From Candidatus Bathyarchaeia archaeon (GTDB taxonomy: Archaea > Thermoproteota > Bathyarchaeia > Bathyarchaeales > Bathycorpusculaceae): a stretch of 11,006 nt of DNA. The stretch spans positions 1 through 11,006 of the forward strand of contig JAVZLK010000045.1 in the NCBI GenBank assembly GCA_038883795.1, read 5' to 3'. This document shows positions 1 to 11,006 of the stretch, piece after piece. The position numbers and the translations under genes are program-made. Within the stretch, counting starts at the first letter, position 1, and each line of letters opens with the position of its first letter. The notes beneath the pieces are model-generated. The model made no database searches. It had not been told where the DNA came from and was given only the letters and a program-made list of their open reading frames with translations.

Positions 1-379
1 CATAACCATAACAAAAATCGAGTTCCAACTAAAACAAGAATGGTTTACACTTCAAGAACCTCTTCCCAAACAAGCTTCAAGAGGCATGGAAACCATAGGA
101 ACAGCCACAATCCAAGCGCAATTAAAAACTCCCGAAAACGTGCAAGGCTACTACAGCATACCCTTCATCGTAACCGCCACTACGCCTCAAGACCTAACAA
201 TAACAACTGCGTCATACATAACATTCACCATAACCGCAACACCACAAACATCAGAAACAACCCTAACAGCAGGAGGATTCATAGAAACCATACAACGCCT
301 ACTAGGCAACCCAATACTGCTACTGCTCCTTATAGCCTTAATAATATGGCTAGCAAGCTACTCACTCAAAAAACACTAA
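1..379 (+). CDS. 3' end of a membrane-anchored protein (beta-rich ectodomain, Thr-rich linker, C-terminal TM helix); 5'-truncated by the window edge
   Basis: The frame of ORF 86..379 is open back to position 2 (ITITKIEFQLKQEWFTLQEPLPKQASRG-METIG...). It ends in hydrophobic ILLLLLIALIIWLASY followed by KKH and TAA. Confidence 0.8.
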   Translation, partial: ITITKIEFQLKQEWFTLQEPLPKQASRGMETIGTATIQAQLKTPENVQGYYSIPFIVTATTPQDLTITTASYITFTITATPQTSETTLTAGGFIETIQRLLGNPILLLLLIALIIWLASYSLKKH

Positions 380-396
380 CTTTGCAAATAACTCAT

Positions 397-424
397 TATT
401 CCGTTAAACGTTACTAACAGAATA
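397..424 (-). repeat. dif/Xer-like recombination site A (11-6-11)
   Basis: + strand TATTCCGTTAA-acgtta-CTAACAGAATA; near-perfect inverted arms; intergenic; matches four other copies. Confidence 0.85.
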
Positions 425-458
425 GCGAGATGAAGATGGGCAATGAAAATAATGCGCC

Positions 459-908
459 TTAGCGAAGTGGACCAAGCCACCATTCGGGCCAGTGAAATTT
501 CTGTTTATTATAAATTTTTTCTCCATATACAATGAGCACGGGAACGATATCGTCGAATTGAATTCCTTCATTGTTTAATGCTTGCTCGAAACATTTAACT
601 TCTTGGTCGAGTTGATTCCAATTTGGTTTGGCATGCTTTACTTCAACCGGGTAATAGACATTGCCCTTGCGGAATAGTAAATCAAGCCTATGAGGTTGCC
701 CCTTTTTCAGCCACGGATGATATAGTTCTCCAACCCCCAAGAGTTCCAAGTTTGGCTCTATCTTATCGGGGTGCTTCACCAAATACGTCCATACTAGAGG
801 CTCTCCCCATTTTTCAGCTACTTTGTAAAATAATCCCAGTTCTTCCTTGATATCCTTCTCAGGGATCTCTATCAATAGCGCATACTTTTTATCCAAAAGA
901 TAATGCAC
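459..908 (-). CDS. Small PD-(D/E)xK-superfamily nuclease (restriction endonuclease-like fold), 149 aa
   Basis: Motif pattern E..LWTYL / E-Y / RLDLLF...YPVEVK...QL..E; purine-rich GAGGAAGG directly before the GTG start. Confidence 0.75.
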   Translation of the reverse strand: MHYLLDKKYALLIEIPEKDIKEELGLFYKVAEKWGEPLVWTYLVKHPDKIEPNLELLGVGELYHPWLKKGQPHRLDLLFRKGNVYYPVEVKHAKPNWNQLDQEVKCFEQALNNEGIQFDDIVPVLIVYGEKIYNKQKFHWPEWWLGPLR

Positions 909-944
909 CCTTCCTCTAATTCAATAAATCTTTTTGTTATATTG

Positions 945-972
945 TTTTCTGTTAATGTCTCCTAAAAGAACT
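945..972 (-). repeat. dif/Xer-like recombination site B
   Basis: + strand TTTTCTGTTAA-tgtctc-CTAAAAGAACT; reverse complement is AGTTCTTTTAG-gagaca-TTAACAGAAAA. Confidence 0.8.
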
Positions 973-1077
973 TCATTGGAAAATGGTTACTAATAAACTG
1001 TTGGTGCTTCCAGTTTTCTGATGATGTGAAAATTTTAATAGGTTCATTTTGTTTTCAATTTTAGGGATGTATAAGGA

Positions 1078-1515
1078 TTGAAGCCGAGGGCAGTATTCTT
1101 CGATGGCATGTTGTTTTTATTATGGGTTTTGATATGCTTTTTTGATTCAACAATCGTTAGTTTTAATGTAATTCTCAGCGGTCTTGGAGTGATTTTCGGT
1201 TTGGGTTTAGGAGTTGTGATTGTATGGAGGCAAACTCGTTGTCTTGAAATTAATGGCGAATTCAAGGCGACTCTTAAAACTTTGATGCTGACTTTACTCG
1301 TTGGTGTGCCCATGGTGCTTTGTTTAGTTTTCCTGCTCTTCAGTTTCGGTCCAGCAGTGGGAGTGCCTATGGTTAGTTTTCTTCTTCCGGCGGTTCCTAC
1401 TGCCTATGCAGCTAAAATAATTTTCTTCTTGAATTGGGAGAGAAAAAATAAAAAGCTAATACTTTATGACTTTCGTTACCTCAACCGAATTTACGCTACC
1501 CAAAAAGATACTTGA
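1078..1515 (+). CDS. Hypothetical integral membrane protein with about 4 TM helices, 145 aa
   Basis: Four hydrophobic segments and a basic C-terminal tail (WERKNKKLI); fills the interval between sites B and C; TTG start is uncertain. Confidence 0.75.
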   Translation: MKPRAVFFDGMLFLLWVLICFFDSTIVSFNVILSGLGVIFGLGLGVVIVWRQTRCLEINGEFKATLKTLMLTLLVGVPMVLCLVFLLFSFGPAVGVPMVSFLLPAVPTAYAAKIIFFLNWERKNKKLILYDFRYLNRIYATQKDT

Positions 1516-1554
1516 AAGGGAAAATGTCCAAAATACCGCAAGAAATCTTGGATG

Positions 1555-1582
1555 ACTTCTCTTAGTCATCGTTAACAGAATA
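1555..1582 (+). repeat. dif/Xer-like recombination site C
   Basis: ACTTCTCTTAG-tcatcg-TTAACAGAATA, located between convergent genes. Confidence 0.85.
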
Positions 1583-1659
1583 CGAAGATGCTGTGGTAAG
1601 AAAGCCCAAAAATGTTTTAATTCTATGAAATGGAGGGAAGAGAAGGTTGAAGTGGGTTT

Positions 1660-4017
1660 TCACTGTTTGAGCATGTTGCATCCTTCGATTACGAAGATGT
1701 AGTTTTTTATTTTGCTGATTGGGTATGGCGCCATGAATGTTAGGTCTATGGTTTCTAGAAGTAGCATTTGCGTTTTATAGTCATCGCTTAATAGTAGTTG
1801 TGGCAGAACGTTTCCAAGCCTGCTATGTTCAGCCTTTAGAAGCGCGCATAAGTGGCTTTTTCCTTGGCTGTCAACAGCGTAAAGCCTCACTTGATCTATG
1901 AATGATTCTGAAAAGTTTAGCCCAGGCCAGCCTTCTACGAGTATGAAGCGAGCTTTATAGTTGGCTATACCCACATATTCTTTTTGTATCTGCACATGCC
2001 TTACCACGTCCTGATTAGTATCTGTGTGAATGTTTATGACGTGGAAGCTTATGTAAGTGCTACCGTTTCATATGAGCAGGGTTGGACAAGGAAATGTTTC
2101 GCCATCGCCTGTAGCATTAGTGAAGTAAGCTGTTAACGAGAGCGGGGCGTCCATCAGCACGCTTATCGGATTTACAAAATGAACTGCCCCGTCCAAGGTC
2201 CAGTGAGTGAAGATGAAGCCTTCTGATGCCACTGCTGTTACCGTTATATTGCTTCCCTCAACATGTTCATATGTTCCAGGCGTTGGATAGGTTGTTCCAC
2301 CACCATACGGTATTGAGACAGCATATATAGTGAGGTTGTAGTATGCTTTATAACGTGCCTCTATGTTTAAGTCGCATGTTAGCTGTATTGTTTTTGGATT
2401 GTCAGCGGAACCCTCTGCCCATTGGTCAAACTTGTATTTTATGGAGTTTATATAAACTGGAGATTGAACCTTGATTGTGTGTGTTCCCTCCGGCAGGATT
2501 AAGGAGAGTATCGGCGTGGAGTACTCGTTGCTATCTATCCAAACTTTAACGCCTGCTACTTCTCCTAATTTACTAAAACTAGTATGGATATCCATGTAGT
2601 GTGCACCCGTATACATATTCAAAGTTACTGATGTAGAAACGGTATAACCTTCAAGCCTGTCAAAATCGTAGTATAATGCCTCAGCCGTTATGGTTAGAAC
2701 ATGATCTGCGTTGTTTGAATCCATAAATGACCACTCAAACGTGCTGGCTAACGAGGCATCAAACGGCTCCCCTTGGACTTCCTGCCCACCTCCAGGTTCT
2801 TCGGCTTTACATATTGCGTAGACGAAGGATTCATTGTCTTCTGTTCCAGCCGCTTTATAGCGTTGTGTGGCGTTTGAGAATTTGGCCGATGCATAAGCCG
2901 CTGTAACATCATAAAGAACGAGTAGACCCCCTATAACCATCCCTGCACCTGACATTATTACACCAGCCCATTCAGCCCTAGAGATCAATACTTCTGCGGC
3001 GCCTTTTACACAAGTAGCCCAAAAATCTCCATAAGGATTTTCGGTGCTAAGTAGTTCAACGTTGTATCCGCTAATATATGAAATTAGTGGGTCCACCTTT
3101 GCTTTATTATCGTTTTTTGTTAATTTTATTTTTAGTTCTATCAATCTGCTTCCTTCATTTTGAGGGTATACGCCAAAATAACCGCTATTCTTGATTTCGC
3201 CGCTGTTTAAGCTGATGGAGTAACCTTGTAAGCCTAGCTGGTTTTCTACACCTATTGATGTTGGCAAGTCCTTGGTTATGCTTTTGTATTGAAAGAAGAT
3301 TTTATTATGGAAAACATCGCTACCCCATCCTCGTCTCTCTTGTATGAGCAATTGGAAGGTCTGTGGATTGCCGTTGGCATCTAGAACATTGTTCCAGCTC
3401 ACCACAAAATAATAATTACCATCCTCGCCGTTGAAGATTTTCTTGCCATACGTTATTGAGCCGCCATGATTGGGCTTTAAGTCTCTCCAAAAAGGCGCAA
3501 TCACCGCATTTGGGGTGCTGTTGCTGGGGATGGATTGCGGATTAGCCTCAGCAGATTCGGATGTTAAACTTATGAAGCCATTGCTGCAAACCCATATGCG
3601 CCAATACTCCACGCCATAAAAGAGGAACGGAAAGCCTAGCTCAAGCCACACGCCCGCATCATCACCAGTTATGCCCGTCAGATTAGAAACTTCAAGCTAC
3701 TCAAAACCATGAACAGGAGGATTCCAAACATAGTCAATACCTCTACGAGTATTAGCAGAAACACAAACTTTTAAGCTCAAATGGTCTGCATTATAGGCAG
3801 GATCATTTTCGCTATATTTGCCAACTGTGACACCAATTGCTACTGCAGCCTCACCATCTGTAGAGGCTCTTTCAATAGTTTCATTAAACATTCTATCAGT
3901 TGACGGTCTGGGCTTTGACCAATCATAGTTTTCAGCATATGCCGGTAAAATGATAAACAGCGCTTGCAGCGCCAACAAAATAATTAACGTACTGCCTACA
4001 AGGCGCCTTGTTTTCAT
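1660..4017 (-). pseudogene. Large secreted/surface protein (785 codons in one frame) interrupted by in-frame TAG (3697-3699) and TGA (2068-2070). Signal peptide, nidogen/NIDO-like domain, hydrophobic hairpin, PEGA-like and divergent InlB B-repeat-like domains, CPTL..WNG C-terminal domain
   Basis: ORFs 3697..4017, 2068..3651 and 1660..2007 share one frame. The gaps translate cleanly: GFE*LEVSNLTGITGDDAGVWLELGFPFLFYG and CPTLLI*NGSTYISFHVINIH. NIDO-like motifs: DD...LGFPFLFYG, VCSNGFISL, IAPFWRDL, TFQ. B-repeat-like motif: GGTTYPTPG...VTAVASEGFIFTHW. Confidence 0.8.
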
Positions 4018-4991
4018 GGATATGCCACCGGGGGTTCAAGCTTCCTATAACTTACATGGAAAATTATGTCTTCATCGACGTTTACGGTTATGTTTGGTGT
4101 TAGGAAATTTGCTTCTGATTTGTAGAATACCCCGTCAAATTGGTATGTTGTAGAATTCAATTCTAATTGGGGTGGGAAGCTTATTTGATGCACTCCCTCT
4201 CTAACGAATATGATGATAGGAGTTTCATAGGTTACATGATCAACTGAAACATTAACACTGACAGAACGACCCTCACCCACAATCACTGCATCATTAAACG
4301 TAAGAATATGATAACCAGCATAGAAAATAAGACGGAAAGGCTGAATCAAGTTCTTATAAACAGATCCGTTGTAGTACACGATTTCGCATGTAATCTCCCT
4401 TTGATGAGTTTTATTATTCTGTGTGAAAAGTTCCCATTCAAATGAGCCTTTAAAATAACACCAGCTAGGGTTATTGGTGCCGGCTAAACTGATGTGGGCA
4501 GTTTTGCCGAAGCCAAAACTTGTCTTGGACAGATTCTCTAAATCAAACTCCGTTAGGAGCCAATCTACTTTAGATTTTTCGCTATCGTTCTTTACGTTAA
4601 AGTAAATGTTCTCAATGCGAGCATTTTTGCCGAACACTGCGACATTAATTTTAATGATCAGAGAAATTATATCAGCATAGTTATAAGCGACATCATCGTT
4701 ACTATAGGTTCCAATTGTTAGGCTAAATGAGGATAAGCATTCGGCATCAGAATATGTATTGCTTAGCAAGTCATCAATATAGTAAAAGCTACTGGTTGGT
4801 CTTGGGAATGACCATTCTTTTATTGGCAGTTCTTTTGTTTCGGCTATTGTTATTGGTTCTTTTATTATTCCTGTCAGTTTGAATGTTGTTAGTAGGCTTA
4901 ATGGCACTATTATTGATAGCAGAAAGGCTGTTTTCCAGCTTTTCAGACCGTTCATCTGCAAAGCCAGTTTCTCCAAAACTTTGAAGTTCAA
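4014..4991 (-). CDS. N-terminally membrane-anchored beta-rich protein, 325 aa; paralog of the downstream surface protein
   Basis: N-terminal TM segment (AFLLSIIVPLSLLTTF); its stop overlaps the next start (ATGA at 4017-4014); collinear motif similarity to 1660..4017. Start is TTG 4991 or ATG 4955. Confidence 0.85.
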   Translation of the reverse strand: MNFKVLEKLALQMNGLKSWKTAFLLSIIVPLSLLTTFKLTGIIKEPITIAETKELPIKEWSFPRPTSSFYYIDDLLSNTYSDAECLSSFSLTIGTYSNDDVAYNYADIISLIIKINVAVFGKNARIENIYFNVKNDSEKSKVDWLLTEFDLENLSKTSFGFGKTAHISLAGTNNPSWCYFKGSFEWELFTQNNKTHQREITCEIVYYNGSVYKNLIQPFRLIFYAGYHILTFNDAVIVGEGRSVSVNVSVDHVTYETPIIIFVREGVHQISFPPQLELNSTTYQFDGVFYKSEANFLTPNITVNVDEDIIFHVSYRKLEPPVAYP

Positions 4992-5013
4992 CTAATAATT
5001 ATATCGCAATTCA

Positions 5014-5027
5014 TTTTTAAGGCTTTT
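5014..5027 (-). promoter_or_regulatory. Putative archaeal BRE/TATA promoter for the surface-protein pair
   Basis: Minus strand AAAAGCC-TTAAAAA about 25 nt upstream of TTG 4991, consistent with a leaderless transcript. Confidence 0.5.
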
Positions 5028-5061
5028 GTATTTGTCCTCTAGAATAATCATGAGCTACCCT

Positions 5062-5642
5062 TTAAGCGTTCAAAATTGTCACCGTCTCTATAACCGCTGC
5101 AAAAAAGAGAAGCAAAGCGATAAATCCGTAAAATCTCAAACACTCTTTTAGCCCCTTTTGAAAGCTTCAAACTTAGATAACCCACCCCCATATGCCCGCC
5201 TTGGATTAAGCCAAGAAAACCCAACAACAGTTCCAGCCAGAGCAGCAATCACATACGCTTCACCCTCAAGAAAAATTACTGGCAGAGCAAACAAAAATAA
5301 AGAATTAGGCATGGCATAAACAAGTAAACCCCACAAAAAAGCCCTAAACAAAAGTGACACAGCAGATAACGGGAAAAACACAAAGCCTGGCAAAGTTATC
5401 ACAACGAAAGCTGCAACAGCCAAATTAAACAAGAAAACCACAAACAGCGAAAAAACCCCAAAACGAGCAACAACCCCTGTAATGTCAAGCGTCCAGCCCG
5501 TAAAAACCGCAGAAAAAAACATGAAATGCGCATATGCAGCCACTGCAAAAATACAGCTGAAGAACAGCAAATTAAACAAAATAAATAGTTTCCTTCTAAC
5601 AAAAAACATCTCTAAAACACAATCGAAAGAGTCTCCAAGCAT
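5062..5642 (-). pseudogene. Stage II sporulation protein M (SpoIIM/DUF95)-like membrane protein with a 1-bp deletion near 5152-5155 (about 193 aa if repaired)
   Basis: Multi-TM protein with FLFNL..A, LPG and LP...LEGEAYVIAALAG motifs. After ...FKRG the shifted frame gives LKECLRFYGFIALLLFFAAVIETVTILNA*, supplying the family-like final LL..AA.IE helix. Confidence 0.75.
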
Positions 5643-5676
5643 GTAGTTTTACCTAAAGAAATAAAAATGCAAGCAA

Positions 5677-5688
5677 CATAAAAGCTTA
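5677..5688 (-). promoter_or_regulatory. Putative TATA box for the SpoIIM-like gene
   Basis: Minus strand TAAGCTTTTATG about 36 nt upstream of ATG 5642. Confidence 0.4.
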
Positions 5689-5695
5689 ACCTAAT

Positions 5696-5723
5696 ATTTC
5701 TGTTAGTCGCTGTTAACAGAAAA
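5696..5723 (+). repeat. dif/Xer-like recombination site D
   Basis: ATTTCTGTTAG-tcgctg-TTAACAGAAAA; 9-bp perfect inverted core TTTCTGTTA/TAACAGAAA; located between divergent genes. Confidence 0.88.
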
Positions 5724-5739
5724 GGTAGTTTATATATAA
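5719..5739 (+). promoter_or_regulatory. Putative BRE/TATA promoter for the RM gene, abutting site D
   Basis: GAAAAGGTAG-TTTATATATAA; a GGTGG Shine-Dalgarno-like sequence lies at 5804-5808 before TTG 5814. Confidence 0.5.
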
Positions 5740-5813
5740 CCGAATTTCCGTGGGATAAACTTAAAACTAATGAGAAAAGTTCCTATTTATTGTTAGTTTG
5801 ATGGTGGTATTGG

Positions 5814-8763
5814 TTGTCGGGTAGAATTACGGAACGCACACTTTATCCTTTCATCGGCAAGGTTTTTGAGAGTTTAGGCTGGCGTTATTTTTCTGAAACC
5901 AGTTTAGATGAGCGCTTTCCTGATTTAGTTCTGGAAAGCGACGGCGCGAAGGTTATTTCTGAAGTTAAAATTGATTCTGAGATTCAGTTGACTAAGGCAA
6001 TTATTGATGCTGACCAAAAGGCACGGAGACTCGGAACTCGTAATGCCGTTGCCCTGCTCTTTCCGAGCTATGTGCGTGGTATCCCTTTAAGCGAGTTAGA
6101 GCGAAACTATCCTCGCATGAAAGTTTCTGCTTTGGTTTTGACGGATTGGCTTGCTGAAAGAAAAGAATTAACTCTTGAAGATTTAGCAGAAGCGTTTACA
6201 ACATCCTTCAAGGATTGGCTTGAAACTAAGAAGACCAGGGTTAGTTATGATTTGGTTGTCGATGTTGCGCGCGATTCTATTCGAGAAATTGCTGGCTATT
6301 TGCGACAAGGTCTCTCCCAAAAACCTGTTTTTGACAGTGCAATGGCTGTTGTGGGACGTTTTGACATTTACAAGAGTCTGCTTGAAGATTTTTCTGGTGT
6401 AAAAGAGGATGAAGCAAAATTATACATTGCGGATATAACGGCATACATTTTAGTAAATCAGCTTCTCTTTTACCACATCGTATCAGAAAAGCTTGGATAC
6501 GATAAGCTGCCTGATGTTGACCCGTTAAATCCACCAAAGGATTTCCTCGACATTTTGGATGAAACTTTCAAGAGGGCCAGGGAGACTTATCCGCATATTC
6601 TTGGTTTCGATTTATTTCCTGTTCTCCAGGGCGATTATAGGATCGTTTATTCCATTGCAAGAATATTGTCAACTTTGAAGGCACTTCGTCCACAGCATAT
6701 CCGAGAGGACCTTTTTGGCAGACTTTACCATGAAACTATCCCACCTGAGACTAGAAAGAATCTTGGCGCTTTTTACACCAAACCTGAAGCTGCAAAGCTT
6801 TTGGCTGCGCTTGCCATCGACTGGTGGTATGCAAAAGTTCTTGATCTTGCGTGCGGTTCTGGAACACTTTTTAGTAGAGGCTTATCATCGAAAGGCGCAA
6901 TTAGCCCCACCTATGACCCGCGAAGAGCTACATAAACGCTTAATCAATGAGATTTACGGAATTGACGTTATGCACTTCGCATTTCACATGACCTCCATGA
7001 ACCTAACAGCTCAAGATATAGATGTCCCTCTGAAGCCTCATGTAATGAGCCAAGATGGAATAAAGGTGATGATTCAATCAGCCCAAGAAAGTCAAAGTGC
7101 CAATGACCCACCAAAAAGGGCTGAACAGTCAATTGCTAAATGGTTAGAAATAATGAAAGAAGAAAGGATACCGAAAGATTTTGATGTCGTTATCATGAAT
7201 CCGCCTTTCACGAGACGGGAACGCATCCCTGCCAAAAAAGAAGATCTAGAGCAGCTGGTTCCAGAGGTTAAGGGGAAAACCGGATACTGGGCATACTTTG
7301 TAGTTGCGGCAGACAAACTGTTGAAGGAGGATGGTGTGCTTGCCATAGTTATACCCGAGGAATTCTTCGTTGGAAGATCCGCTCAAAGTATTAGAGAATA
7401 TCTTTTTGAAAGAGGATACACCATCAGACATATTTTGAGAAGCGCTGCAGAAGTTGCGTTCAGTGAATCAGCACATTATCGGGATTATTTGATCATATTG
7501 CAAAAAGGTTCAAAAGATAGGCCACTTGTTCTTTCCGTCTTGAAGAAGAAACTAGATGACATACGTGAAAAAGTCGATACATTAGCACTCAAAATCCGAG
7601 AATTTGAAACCTCTCCTGATAAGAGGCTGAATCTAGAGGAAATAGTTTCGCTTAAAATATCTAAAGCAAATGACTTTGTGAGGCGGCATATTGGCAATTT
7701 AAAGCCCCTTGTAGGATTCAACTCGGCGAAAGCATATGCTCTCGTTTTAGAATTATTGGATCAATTGAAAGATAGCCCTACAATGGAAGATTTTGTAGAA
7801 AATAAAACAATCGAGGTTAAAGTCTACAATCCTGGGCAATTCACCATAAAAGGAGTTGAAAAGTTCGCCCGCAAACTCTTCATAAGCAGATATGGCGCTA
7901 GAAGCCCTAACACAGTTTTCTTTCTAGATGGCATAAAAGATAGAACTGTATTTCTAAAAGTTAGAAAAACAAAAATGACCTTCGAAATTCCAGAGAGCGC
8001 TACAGTATTTTCGCTAAAAACCTATAGCAAAGTGAATCATATGGATATAACAGACGAGGAAGAACGCGCAATAATCGATGCTGAATCGATACCTCAGGAA
8101 ACGCTAAAATTGGCAAGTCTTCTTCCATTAAACAATGCAATTAGAGCGGCAAATGATGTATCCTCTGCATACAAAAATATTTCTGGTAACATTTTGTTGG
8201 TTAGAAAAGTAAGGTTAACATCACCAGATTTGTTTTGGACGGCCTTTTTGTCGAAAAATAAGATGCTAGGAACAACGTCAGCATTACTTAACATGAATAT
8301 AACAGATGCTACACTGGCGGTTCCATTAGTTCTATACCTTAACAGCACAATCACCTTCTTGCAACTAATCGCTTTTATGGCAGAAACAGAAGGCGCATGG
8401 GTTACATTCCATGGAAAACAGGTATGGAGCCATCTCTACATGCCAAAACTTGAAAAACTACAAAAAGCAATAAAGAAAGCACAGGAACTCTTTAAAAATA
8501 TTCGCAAAATTGATGCTAAACCTCTTTTCAGGCGTATCAAGGAGCATGACACTATCCAGAGAGCTATCGATGAGCCGGCGCTAGAAATGCTTGGGCTCGA
8601 GGAGTGGAAACCACGTCTAGATGAAATTTATGACGCCACAGCAAAAGAACTAGAAATCATGCACAAAATCCTAGAATCAACAGGAAAACCGTTCAAAAAA
8701 CCAAAAACAACAATAGAAAAGAAAGGAGAAGCTGAAACCATAACAAAATGGCTAGAGAAATAA
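5814..8763 (+). pseudogene. Type IIG-like fused restriction endonuclease / amino (N6-adenine) DNA methyltransferase, about 982 aa if repaired; +1 frameshift in a T5 run at 6868-6872
   Basis: N-terminal nuclease motif (TE...FPDLVL...SEVKID); RKNLGAFYTKP (motif X); VLDLACGSGTL (motif I); IYGID; FDVVIMNPPF (motif IV); LAIVIP. Removing one T joins ORFs 5814..6935 and 6715..8763 as GSGTLLVEAYHRK. Confidence 0.9.
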
Positions 8764-8777
8764 ATAATGAATCAACC

Positions 8778-8805
8778 AATTCTGTTAGTTGCAATTAGAA
8801 GAACG
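8778..8805 (+). repeat. dif/Xer-like recombination site E (right arm more divergent)
   Basis: AATTCTGTTAG-ttgcaa-TTAGAAGAACG, starting 15 nt after the RM stop codon. Confidence 0.78.
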
Positions 8806-8971: not shown

Positions 8972-9014
8972 GGATACTGTCCATTGCGAGCCTCGCCAAA
9001 GGATACTGTCCTTT
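8972..9014. repeat. Two copies of GGATACTGTCC (8972-8982 and 9001-9011), each the centre of a short palindrome
   Basis: TGGA-tactg-TCCA and AAAGGA-tactg-TCCTTT, 29 bp apart, upstream of the integrase. Confidence 0.5.
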
Positions 9015-9183
9015 GCTAGCGGCAGAAAATTCTTGTGGTTTTCTGGTGAATGTGTAATGGGGCATGGGTTTGATGGTTGAGTTTGTTGTTGGCGTTAATC
9101 GGCAAAGGATTGTGTATATGACCACTGAGATTGTCGGAAATCTAGTTACGATTGGACTATGGTGCCCTGTACAGCCTAATTAA

Positions 9184-10644
9184 GTGGCAAAAATGACTGT
9201 TGTGGCAGCGGGAGAAAAGCTTGGTCTTCCACAAGCGCCTTCCGGCGCAGCTCGGCAAAAGCGAGTTAAAAATGGGAAGTCCGCTGAGAAGAGCGGCTCG
9301 CACAAGGCCTCTATACGCTGCCCAGAATGCGCATCGCAACGCGTTTGGAAGGATGGTCTTCGTAAGACCGGTAGGGGTAAAGTGCAAAGGTGGCTATGTC
9401 GAAGCTGTGGCTTTAGATTCAGCGAGTCGACTGCGAACAACCAAGTAAAGGTCGACGTCTTCGGCCAACCCTTTAAACAGTCGGATGCGCGACAGGGTCT
9501 TCTGCAGTCGGATGTCTTTCAAAGTGAGTTTTCCGTCGAGCCATCCTTGGAGAACTGTCCTCTCAAGAGGTGTGAAGATATAGGTTCGCATATCTCATCG
9601 AAAAAGACTATGACAGAGAAAACTATATATGCCTTTTCAGACTATAATAGAGATCGCCGAGTATGCGTCTCGGAAGCCGAGGCGAAAAACTTGGCTGCAG
9701 TCGAATCCCGACAGGAAGTAGCCCAGCGGGAGGGCACAACGCAGTCAACAGTCAGCATTGAAGGTGAAATACTACGCTACTTGGTCTGGCTGAAGAATCA
9801 AGCCTACAGCCATTATACAATCAGAAGCAGAGCCAATCTTTTGAAAAGTTTCGTCAAAATGAAAGCAAATTTGAGTGATCCTGATTCGGTCAAGGAAGTA
9901 ATAGCCAATGCAAACAATTGGAGCCAAACAACGAAACTTCTCGCGACAACAGCTTACGACAGTTTTCTGAAGTGGCAAGGCAAAACTTGGATTTCCCCAA
10001 GATATAGACAAACCCAAAAATTGCCCTTCATTCCAACTGAAGAAGAGCTTGATGCTTTGATTACTATATCTGGAAAGAAACTTGCAACAATGCTCCAGAT
10101 CCTAAAAGAAACAGGTGCCAGACTCGGTGAAGCCTTCAAACTTGAGTGGACTGACATCGATTTCGAACGCTCCACATTAAGAATCAATCATCCAGAAAAG
10201 GGAAGCAACCCTCGAATTCTGCCGATTACCAAGAAACTTGCCAGTATGATAAACACGCTTCCAAAAAAGGGTTCAAGAATCTTTGGTGGCGGAAGCCTTA
10301 GAACCTTCGAAACATCCTTCTGGAATCAAAGAAGGAGAGCAGCCGCCAAACTTCAAAATCCACGACTGAAAGCCATTACTTTCCACACTTTCCGACATTG
10401 GAAAGCAACAATGGAATACCACAAAACGCATGACATATTCCACGTTCAGAAACTTCTCGGACACAAAAACATCCAGAACACAGCAATCTACATTACCCTG
10501 GAAAACAGTGTATTTCAAACAAAAGAAGACGACTTTCACGTTGCAGTCGCCAAAACACTGGAAGAAGCATGCAAACTAGTGGAAGTAGGCTTTGAATACG
10601 TCTGTAGCATGGACAATGCGAAAATCTTCAGAAAGCGAAAATAA
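9184..10644 (+). CDS. Tyrosine recombinase/integrase with an N-terminal IS1/InsA-like C4 zinc ribbon; possible internal start at TTG 9691
   Basis: Complete catalytic set: ETGAR (R), PEKGS (K), FHTFRH (HxxR), LLGH (H), TAIY (Y). Zn ribbon CPEC-x22-CRSC at 9319-9408. Confidence 0.95.
   Translation: MAKMTVVAAGEKLGLPQAPSGAARQKRVKNGKSAEKSGSHKASIRCPECASQRVWKDGLRKTGRGKVQRWLCRSCGFRFSESTANNQVKVDVFGQPFKQSDARQGLLQSDVFQSEFSVEPSLENCPLKRCEDIGSHISSKKTMTEKTIYAFSDYNRDRRVCVSEAEAKNLAAVESRQEVAQREGTTQSTVSIEGEILRYLVWLKNQAYSHYTIRSRANLLKSFVKMKANLSDPDSVKEVIANANNWSQTTKLLATTAYDSFLKWQGKTWISPRYRQTQKLPFIPTEEELDALITISGKKLATMLQILKETGARLGEAFKLEWTDIDFERSTLRINHPEKGSNPRILPITKKLASMINTLPKKGSRIFGGGSLRTFETSFWNQRRRAAAKLQNPRLKAITFHTFRHWKATMEYHKTHDIFHVQKLLGHKNIQNTAIYITLENSVFQTKEDDFHVAVAKTLEEACKLVEVGFEYVCSMDNAKIFRKRK
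9394..9591 (-). CDS. Small basic helical protein (65 aa) nested antisense within the integrase N-terminal extension; candidate regulator or directionality factor
   Basis: ATG start with an ATATATAG TATA-like element 32-39 nt upstream. Amphipathic helical pattern (FTPLERTVLQGWLDG...LSRIRLFKGLAEDVDLYL). The opposite-strand integrase segment reads like an unstructured linker. Confidence 0.6.
   Translation of the reverse strand: MRTYIFTPLERTVLQGWLDGKLTLKDIRLQKTLSRIRLFKGLAEDVDLYLVVRSRLAESKATAST
9613..9693. promoter_or_regulatory. Putative bidirectional promoter and RBS inside the integrase ORF
   Basis: CAGAGAAAA-CTATATAT (BRE plus TATA, readable on both strands, 9614-9630); GAGGCG at 9679-9684, 6 nt before the in-frame TTG 9691. 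Confidence 0.5.
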
Positions 10645-10730
10645 AAGATAAAGATGAAAAATAAAAGGTAAAGTTTAAAATGTTCTGAGTAGTAGAAGTG
10701 TTCACAAATCTGAATGTTACGAGGGAAAAA

Positions 10731-11006
10731 TTGATGAACCTCTCGCTTAAAAAAATTAAATCTATAATAATTTTGTTCTTAATCATATCAACAATCACAA
10801 CTATCTCGCTTATGCCAAAAGTGAATGCGGAAGTAACAATTTCCATAGAACCAACTGAAGGGTATGTTGGCGCAAACGTCACATTAACAGCAAACATAAC
10901 AACTCCTAATGGACGATACGAAATTTTGTTTGATGGAAACTTGTTGCTAAGCGATAATGCGACTGGAAACAGCGTGGAAACGTCAATTACTATTCCTCCA
11001 GCGCCT
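10731..11006 (+). CDS. 5' end of a secreted/surface Ig-like-domain protein; 3'-truncated by the window edge
   Basis: GAGGG RBS, TTG 10731/ATG 10734, open to the end of the window: MNLSLKKIKSIIILFLIISTITTISLMPKVNA-EVTISIEPTEGYVGANVTLTANITT... Signal peptide, several N-x-T sequons, TTTAAA box at 10674-10679. Confidence 0.85.
   Translation, partial: MMNLSLKKIKSIIILFLIISTITTISLMPKVNAEVTISIEPTEGYVGANVTLTANITTPNGRYEILFDGNLLLSDNATGNSVETSITIPPAP

Follow-up and report, generated by a model that had tools for sequence, protein, structure and literature searches.

The window analysed here is the entire 11,006-bp contig C45 of a metagenome-assembled genome (MAG) of a Candidatus Bathyarchaeia archaeon (G000; 2.18 Mb in 81 contigs). 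It contains five short palindromic sites, termed a to e, at positions 399..422, 947..970, 1557..1580, 5698..5721 and 8780..8803, and all five lie where an earlier note on this DNA had placed them. Between the sites are four slots, each occupied by a cassette. Slot a-b holds the gene of a 149-amino-acid (aa) protein (459..908, minus strand) and slot b-c a 145-aa open reading frame (ORF) that contains hydrophobic sequence, as read by eye from its translation (1078..1515, plus strand); neither matches a known family. Slot c-d (1660..5642, minus strand) contains genes for secreted proteins and a 164-aa ORF, and slot d-e carries an Eco57I/N6-adenine DNA methyltransferase-like gene (5814..8763, plus strand; PF07669 at 3e-18, and PF02384). 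Upstream of site a, the series is flanked by the 3' end of a surface-protein gene (2..379, plus strand) whose product has a C-terminal membrane anchor; the gene is cut by the contig start and has no Pfam match. Beyond site e are found the gene of a 486-aa tyrosine recombinase with an N-terminal zinc ribbon (9184..10644, plus strand), and the 5' end of another surface-protein gene (10698..11006, plus strand), which is cut by the contig end and shares 81% DNA identity with the gene of a 705-aa anchored protein on contig C1.

The pattern TTCTNTTAG-N6-TTANNNGAA, allowing at most one mismatch, has exactly five matches in the window where 0.01 would be expected, and none of 200 shuffled sequences reached five. 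We also scanned G000 for both arms with any 8-nt spacer and graded the matches by arm mismatches: 12, 18, 20 and 30 matches were observed at 0, 1, 2 and 3 mismatches, against 0.002, 0.08, 1.6 and 20 expected. The shuffles and this genome-wide excess of arm matches rule out chance or low complexity as the origin of the sites. Site a reads TTCCGTTA-AACGTTAC-TAACAGAA and its core belongs to the class ACGTTA. The cores of sites b and c belong to the classes TGTCTC and TCATCG respectively, and site d combines a core of the class TCGCTG with perfect arms. Site e, with the core TTGCAA, is the weakest of the five and has two mismatches in its right arm. Our map of the ORFs confirms the gene contexts described earlier, in which convergent ORFs flank sites a and c, divergent ORFs flank b and d, and e is located 17 nt past the stop codon of the frame at 6715-8763. 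The sole ORF that overlaps site a (55 aa, 404-571, minus strand) is probably spurious. When the sites are oriented by core class, all five are co-directed and read a to e along the plus strand. The earlier note had assigned a and b to the minus strand and c to e to the plus strand, based on the difference between TTAG and TTAA, but that G/A position varies independently of the core and the assignment is not meaningful.

An alignment of 209 distinct sites, pooled from G000, its relatives and metagenome contigs, shows that the conserved unit is 24 bp long with the consensus TTCTGTTAR-N6-YTAACAGAA, where the arms form an inverted repeat (TTCTGTTA ... TAACAGAA). Conservation is confined to these 24 bp, and the core was found to be conserved as strongly as the arms. 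The information drops at the next base outside, to about 0-0.4 bits in the flanks of classes a to d, and the unit is therefore 24 bp rather than the 28 bp given in the earlier note. The layout can be described as 9-6-9 or 8-8-8. With 9-6-9, the sites would be as large as simple tyrosine-recombinase sites, and the size class is also that of dif, for which an 11-6-11 layout is given (PMC2958812); the arm sequence appears unlike dif. Variation in the arms was observed at positions 4-5 and 20-21, and also at 9 and 16, and the two sides vary independently. At the paired positions 4/21 and 5/20, double changes occur 9 and 10 times against 8.4 and 11.3 expected, and they are mostly non-complementary. 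This independent variation speaks against a hairpin of RNA or single-stranded DNA and fits two protein half-sites on duplex DNA. A hairpin or terminator was rejected because the arms show no compensatory change and no Rfam family matched the window at E<=1. Furthermore, the flanks of same-class sites are unrelated in classes a to d, and therefore descent alone, in which the sites would be kept merely through homology of whole loci, was rejected as well.

The cores fall into few classes. Class a has the core ACGTTA, class b TGTCTC, class c TCATCG, class d TCGCTG and class e TTGCAA/G, and four head classes have the cores CATTTA (f), ACCTCT (g), TTCACG (h) and TGTTTG (i). The classes were set on G000 and were afterwards looked for elsewhere, in 40-41 relatives of G000 that include other genera, in a 401-genome sample of the taxonomic class and in a metagenome set of 144 sites on 80 loci (L-numbered below). 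They recur in 10 of 40 related genomes, other genera included, and 124 of the 144 metagenome sites fall within a core class, where by our own calculation about 8% would be expected for a random 6-mer at no more than one mismatch. Class a comprises 31 distinct sites with the same core and arms and unrelated flanks, and class b comprises 61 distinct sites. Class e was found again at the far end of arrays in four other genomes (G012, G294, G402 and G406).

Both the order and the orientation of the classes were observed to be fixed, a property that, together with the slot-specific identity of the cores, the earlier note had missed. Neighbouring sites in G000 and its relatives are co-oriented in 51 of 51 pairs, and 49 of these pairs follow the order head-a-b-c-d-e, where 2000 label shuffles gave a mean of 14.9 and a maximum of 26; many of the contigs are MAG or metagenome fragments that are possibly related, and these and the other site and pair counts are therefore not independent events. 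Of the two pairs that deviate, one results from how the near-palindromic e core was oriented. The order is also kept by nearly all of the 34 metagenome loci that have at least two sites; the departures consist of two inverted pairs (L101 and L132) and of loci where part of the series is repeated in tandem.

About 50 further sites were found in G000, and hundreds in related Bathyarchaeia and metagenome contigs. A scan of the genome and its relatives, as had been suggested in the earlier note, showed the motif to be confined to mobile-element contigs. Fifty of the 57 sites in G000 are located on contigs of at most 31 kb, which make up 35% of the assembly, and the outermost 700 bp at the contig ends, 5.2% of the assembly, contain 19 of them. 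At one arm mismatch or fewer, 30 sites were counted in G000 against 3-6 in its congeners, and 10 in G012, all of them within mobile-element regions. These counts are lower bounds because the scan passed over decayed or variant sites at C25:1468-1490 of G000 and at L033:17170-17195, one of which has a 7-nt spacer instead of 8 and the other four arm mismatches. Within the taxonomic class, 35 of the 401 genomes have a match, and the multi-site genomes belong almost entirely to the family of the window (22 of 103 genomes). A genome of the sister family has four sites with the same arms (TTCGGTTAA / TTAACAGAA) and other cores (G232:C14:12178-63279), and these cores may represent a second set of site classes. 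A viral origin was rejected, as only 5 single matches were present among 2.9 million viral contigs and none in a phage collection.

The proposal that the sites delimit gene modules is supported by the positions at which homology breaks and by the fidelity of cassettes to their slots. Breakpoints were taken as the internal ends of megablast alignments (>=85% identity, >=150 bp) between site-bearing sequences. We observed 16 of 135 such ends inside a site and 19 within 5 nt of one, where 0.60 and 0.86 would be expected under a uniform distribution, and a null restricted to intergenic DNA gives 4.69 for ends inside a site. The breakpoints inside sites correspond to 15 distinct pairwise events. 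Elsewhere too, in further contigs, genera and metagenomes, a switch of gene content was seen to fall precisely on the sites, a test that the earlier note had proposed. As an example, the window and C65 are 99.45% identical over 1400-1580, which takes in the 3' part of the slot b-c ORF, and the likeness ends at the last base of site c. Contig C74 of G000 shares 1041 bp at 97.4% with G012, which belongs to a different genus, and the shared stretch ends at site d. C48 has a d site beyond which only the methylase side is homologous (79% identical). We noticed that rare arm variants accompany the homologous flank on their own side (L041/C74, C46/C48, L040/L038 and C34/L048), which places the break in the core.

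Cassettes are also faithful to their slots. Of 133 informative pairs of homologous cassette proteins (>=60% identity), 93 have both members in one slot type; in shuffles this share averaged 17% and never exceeded 31%. Several of the apparent exceptions involve head genes where an intermediate site went undetected. The same cassettes were found elsewhere with flanking sites, which the earlier note had put forward as a check. In addition, direct duplicates of one class surround a single cassette (d-X-d, b-X-b or c-X-c) on C32, L047, L049, L059, L078, L099 and L113. At C32:8545-8612 of G000, an a site is preceded, 21 bp upstream, by a d-like site, and the array ends with another d site at 18031; insertion at a d site of a circle bearing a, b and d would be expected to leave this layout.

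Assembled contigs from four hot-spring runs (X1, X2, X3 and X6) were aligned to the window. They end in or at sites a, b, d and e (for example, from 393 onwards in X1 and at 8793-8797 in X1, X2 and X3), which shows the sites to be branch points in other assemblies and no more. A contig piece of X3 that aligns from 399 continues into 54 unlike letters before site a. Contig cover over 1836-5500, as judged from contigs only, was almost none in X2, X3 and X6 and low in X1.

The context of a whole array is provided by G012, a MAG that is 98% complete in two contigs. Here the array h-a-b-c-d-e fills a 33.4-kb element within the 1.46-Mb contig C1. One border is formed by a 24-nt repeat of the 5' part of tRNA-Glu (903515-903538), and site e at 903652 is 113 bp from this left attachment (attL) repeat. 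The sites d, c, b, a and h follow at 906402, 908780, 912907, 928038 and 931156. Between h and the integrase gene (935887-936831) are located the genes of F1, a small protein described below, and of a primase-polymerase, and the integrase gene lies 20 bp from tRNA-Glu (936851-936926). The position of the integrase beside tRNA-Glu and the tRNA repeat at the other border identify a tRNA-integrating element, and the array is its cargo. The genes carried by the element include those for the integrase, a primase-polymerase with PriCT (PrimPol/PriCT), Cdc6-like proteins and F1. On contig C59, an integrase gene of the zinc-ribbon family likewise ends 42 bp before tRNA-Ser. A tRNA search of the window, in which the contig ends 362 bp past the integrase gene, found none, and a tRNA-derived attachment site in the window was rejected. 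A known plasmid family was also rejected, as the best match of the PrimPol in a plasmid collection has 26% identity over a part.

An identical tRNA-Ser(GCT) gene is present on at least four contigs of G000 (C4, C19, C29 and C59), each time in a mobile-element context, with a shorter part on C17. This repetition, together with a number of sites far above that of the congeners, suggests that several strain variants of such elements, or of one integration locus, have been binned together in G000, which would also explain the many contig breaks at sites. A 16-nt piece of tRNA-Ser(GCT) was also observed at C12:39575, 162 bp from a d site.

Two types of head precede site a. The first contains F3, a TFIIB-zinc-ribbon protein, and sometimes F2, a XerA-like recombinase of 305 aa whose gene lies about 100 bp from a g-class site; the small F1 gene is found across that site and diverges from the F2 gene. 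In the second type, F1 and an h-class site beside a are followed by a backbone with Prim-Pol/PriCT, a Cdc6-like ATPase and a zinc-ribbon tyrosine integrase of the window type. Tyrosine recombinases have the catalytic residues R-K-H-R-H/W-Y; in the window integrase, the Arg, HxxR, His and Tyr residues align with the catalytic positions of XerA, and XerA is the closest solved structure for both this integrase and F2. Members of F2 are encoded at C58:6555-7481 and C25:19702-20616 of G000, with homologues on L031-L034, L102, L127, L130 and L136. A 31-codon remnant of the F2 3' end (87% identity) was found beside a head site at G007:C52:7894-7986, where the gene is lost and the sites remain. F1 always reads away from the head site, and its start is about 100-240 bp off in the elements measured; 15 F1 ORFs were found in the 80 metagenome loci. 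Its N-terminus is beta-alpha-alpha-like and its structure model has a mean predicted local distance difference test (pLDDT) score of 75.7. When this model was compared with the PDB by Foldseek, nothing matched at E<=0.001 and the best ribbon-helix-helix-like entry was DinJ at E 4.6; a ribbon-helix-helix fold is therefore only a tentative prediction for F1.

Our preferred reading, held at a probability of about 0.58, places the five sites at the borders of modules in the cargo region of a Bathyarchaeia mobile element that is integrative and plasmid-like, and takes them to be heterospecific recombination sites which allow modules to be exchanged slot by slot. This reading is based on the shared dyad arms, the conserved and position-specific cores, the fixed order and orientation, the breaks inside sites and the slot-bound cassettes. 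The arms (a shared 8-9 bp, TTCTGTTAR / YTAACAGAA) would be the binding sites of a dimeric recombinase, and we infer that a site-specific recombinase performs the exchange. Strand exchange would occur in the 6-bp core and would require matching cores, as with tyrosine recombinases, so that each site would recombine only with sites of its own class, such as a with a or b with b. A first event, whether between related elements that share a cell or between an integrated copy and an incoming one, could then swap everything beyond one junction, and a second event at another junction would leave a single slot exchanged. A circle with one site could insert at the matching site to produce the x-cassette-x arrangement. 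With exchange limited to like sites, the order and orientation of the slots would be preserved automatically. As far as can be judged from sequence, the architecture and the class-restricted pattern of exchange fit a simple core site of the Cre/FLP/Xer type, in which an inverted pair of enzyme-binding arms encloses a 6-8-bp crossover region that has to be identical between partners. The candidate recombinases are F2 beside some head sites, the zinc-ribbon integrases and an enzyme that acts in trans. The enzyme may be an integrase of dual specificity, or an unusual recombinase in which the first catalytic arginine is missing. Whether the system is the natural counterpart of recombinase-mediated cassette exchange, with at least five heterospecific sites that share arms and have slot-specific crossover cores, we regard as an evenly balanced question.

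Several observations weigh against recombination at these sites. The cores differ in two of the breakpoint pairs (C46/C48 and C34/L048). When the contigs were checked for circles and deletions, as the earlier note had proposed, no unambiguous recombination product was found; site-to-site joints are present (for example, 1580>5697, 970>5696 and 422>947) with a short side of 20-30 nt, but they are not evidence of deletion or circle forms because the short side is the site itself matching another site. F2 has serine at catalytic Arg I in 10 of 10 full-length homologues, with HxLR, His and Tyr kept. It occurs in 11 of 41 relatives, was not found in the site-bearing genomes G012, G001, G003 and G010, and is present in G015, G020 and G037, in which no sites were detected. 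The zinc-ribbon integrases are found in 34 of 41 relatives irrespective of sites, and the one in G012 adjoins a tRNA-derived attachment repeat that is unlike the sites. This distribution and the tRNA-side position in G012 C1 and on C59 do not support the adjacent integrase as the recombinase, a role that the earlier note had offered it. The co-occurrence of sites with F2, F1 or the zinc-ribbon integrase in the 41 relatives yielded no clean partner, in a test weakened by the incompleteness of the MAGs. Finally, the sole gene found consistently beside arrays, in both head types, is that of F1, a small putative DNA-binding protein that could bind the palindromes as a regulator.

The last point leads to the strongest of the rival explanations, which we nevertheless hold to be unlikely. 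In this explanation the sites are operators or insulators, bound by a DNA-binding protein of the element, most likely F1, that controls or insulates the transcription of the modules, and the breaks only mark intergenic borders. The consistent adjacency of F1 to the arrays and its beta-alpha-alpha-like N-terminus agree with such a role, as do arms that act as two independent half-sites and the lack of a recombinase that tracks the sites; the fold of F1, however, has no significant match in the PDB. Regulation would leave unexplained why few classes of conserved cores recur in one order and orientation across genera with unrelated flanks. The gene contexts also fit poorly with operators. Among the 78 sites with an ORF on both sides, the gene orientations were -- in 24, +- in 21, -+ in 17 and ++ in 16, so that 21 of the 78 lie between convergent gene ends, and the distance from a site to a start codon spans about 20 to 850 nt. 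Nor is the motif a promoter-linked transcription-factor site scattered upstream of housekeeping genes, a case that the earlier note had set against its own proposal, and no fixed distance to start codons was observed. In addition, paralogues of the window methylase that are located outside arrays, on C31 and C2, have no site upstream, and the 16 breaks inside the 24 bp exceed the 4.69 of the intergenic-only null. Next in likelihood, and again improbable, are linker patches in the sense of Botstein's modular theory, where 24 bp of identity at the module borders would support exchange by homologous or microhomology recombination of the host or by a relaxed integrase. Such patches would account for the breakpoints, the slot fidelity and the order equally well as site-specific exchange, and they would need no dedicated recombinase, none having been identified. 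There is also precedent in archaea, as the integrase of pTN3 is described to recombine identical segments with low sequence specificity, and tandemly integrated elements to exchange modules by homologous recombination (PMC8371274). However, the shortest segment quoted there for the pTN3 integrase is 104 bp, far above 24 bp. Arms common to all junctions would favour out-of-register exchange and are sensible only as a protein-binding element, and the strict dyad symmetry and the 24-bp boundary of conservation likewise point to recognition by a dimer.

It is very unlikely that the array is a true integron or a Xer-dependent system of the pdif/IMEX type, in which modules would be captured by an integron-type integrase or by host XerA at dif-like sites, as the earlier note had suggested. 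The palindromic layout with its 6-bp centre, the position of XerA as the nearest solved relative of both candidate recombinases and the direct x-cassette-x duplicates, which resemble single-site insertion, would agree with this possibility. Integron integrases have an additional domain specific to IntI; here, however, there is no IntI signature: the window integrase scores 77.9 bits with TIGR02249 (cut-off 265) and 44.4 bits with NF011946 (cut-off 435), and F2 matches no IntI model. The covariation expected of hairpins is absent, the gene orientations are mixed and the cassettes are bound to their slots. For Xer, the XerA profile NF040815 has a cut-off of 220 bits and reaches at best 173.7 bits in G000 and 109.8 bits in G012 (98% complete), in a search where the control genomes were positive. 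Furthermore, a genome has about ten sites, all inside mobile elements and not one at the replication terminus, and neighbouring sites are co-oriented (51 of 51 pairs) rather than alternating.

Each of the known systems shares part of this organization. The attC sites of integrons are imperfect inverted repeats of 57-141 nt that recombine in a folded, single-stranded form, and integron cassettes are mostly single, co-oriented and promoterless ORFs that may take any array position. The sites described here are instead duplex palindromes of 24 bp with position-specific and ordered cores, and the cassettes are often multi-gene, lie in either orientation and keep to their slots. A replicon has one dif, near the terminus, and pdif sites alternate in orientation around their modules. 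The pdif modules of Acinetobacter plasmids are likewise bounded by short two-arm sites with a 6-bp centre and are found in varied contexts, whereas here no XerC/D or XerA over cut-off was found, the sites are co-oriented and their centres form a fixed, ordered series. In shufflons and multiple-inversion systems (Rci/sfx, Min and the Hin family), one recombinase acts on many short inverted sites that share one core and produces inversions. They likewise diversify one locus through many short sites, but the sites here are direct and have unlike cores, with two inverted metagenome pairs only. Integrons, including the archaeal ones (PMC9668308), are also arrays of accessory genes with diverse cargo and short recombination-type sites beside a tyrosine recombinase. 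The closest parallel in logic is engineered cassette exchange with heterospecific lox or FRT sites, where identical arms surround unlike spacers that recombine only with like (PMC2875000, PMC3333864). That system is man-made and uses two sites, and the one proposed here would be natural with at least five site classes in series. Archaeal elements that integrate at tRNA genes and encode a tyrosine integrase and a primase-polymerase resemble the G012 element with its integrase by tRNA-Glu, 24-nt repeat, PrimPol/PriCT and Cdc6-like genes; in the passages cited (PMC8371274), their module exchange is ascribed to homologous recombination and junction sites with ordered cores are not described. Ordered unlike cores on shared arms are thus found in none of integrons, pdif modules, shufflons and lox/FRT exchange, and a literature search, which did not extend to supplements, found no description of such ordered sites.

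The cargo of the slots is diverse. The slots mostly hold unrelated ORFs, with 140 Pfam families matched among 111 slot ORFs, and up to about 20 genes can be present in one slot (slot a-b of G012). The cargo includes NosD/beta-helix surface proteins (8), S-adenosylmethionine (SAM) methyltransferases (6), CARDB proteins (4) and PD-(D/E)XK nucleases (2). Single cases are the large chain of RuBisCO (7e-55), an NAD synthase (3e-65) and a family-5 solute-binding protein (1e-67). Models of defence systems match only a minority, namely mad2 in 7 and a few restriction-modification models.

In slot c-d of the window, the 786-codon frame at 1660-4017 (minus strand) encodes a secreted protein with NIDO, PEGA and InlB-B-repeat-like domains and is interrupted in frame twice, by a TAG near 3697 and by a TGA near 2062. 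There is no frameshift, and the likely source run covers this region at low depth. Two unlike stop codons suggest decay or sequence error rather than recoding. A paralogous secreted protein of 325 aa is encoded at 4014-4991, and the 164-aa ORF, which has no family match, at 5148-5642 (both minus strand). The methyltransferase gene of slot d-e is split over two overlapping frames, 5814-6935 and 6715-8763. Contigs of X2 and X3 have one base fewer at 6868, a difference that may give a single methyltransferase frame, and the split is either an assembly error or a real frameshift of this variant. Upstream of the integrase gene are two 20-nt direct repeats starting GGATACTGTCC (8972..9020, plus strand). 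A single copy of this unit was found at C6:2834 of G000, about 1.5 kb from the sites on C6. In three runs, contig depth summed over 8985-9042 exceeds that of the adjoining sequence many times over, which indicates that this stretch is shared by many molecules in those samples.

If the sites do act as heterospecific junctions, a fixed scaffold of unlike sites would let populations of these archaea mix modules without scrambling them, and this would be a new way for mobile elements to organize gene exchange. It would constitute a site-specific form of modular evolution distinct from integrons, pdif modules and shufflons, and would deserve standing as a system of its own if the mechanism is confirmed. 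Such exchange would explain why these regions of Bathyarchaeia are fragmented in metagenome assemblies and why near-identical cassettes occur in different genera, as is the case for the d-e cassette of G000 and G012 (97%). Botstein's idea of linkers in modular evolution is made directly testable in an archaeal system. Furthermore, hot-spring archaea would provide at least five naturally orthogonal site variants for one recombinase, which would be of practical interest for genome engineering. For the Bathyarchaeia themselves, the cargo at stake comprises surface proteins, methyltransferases, nucleases and metabolic genes.

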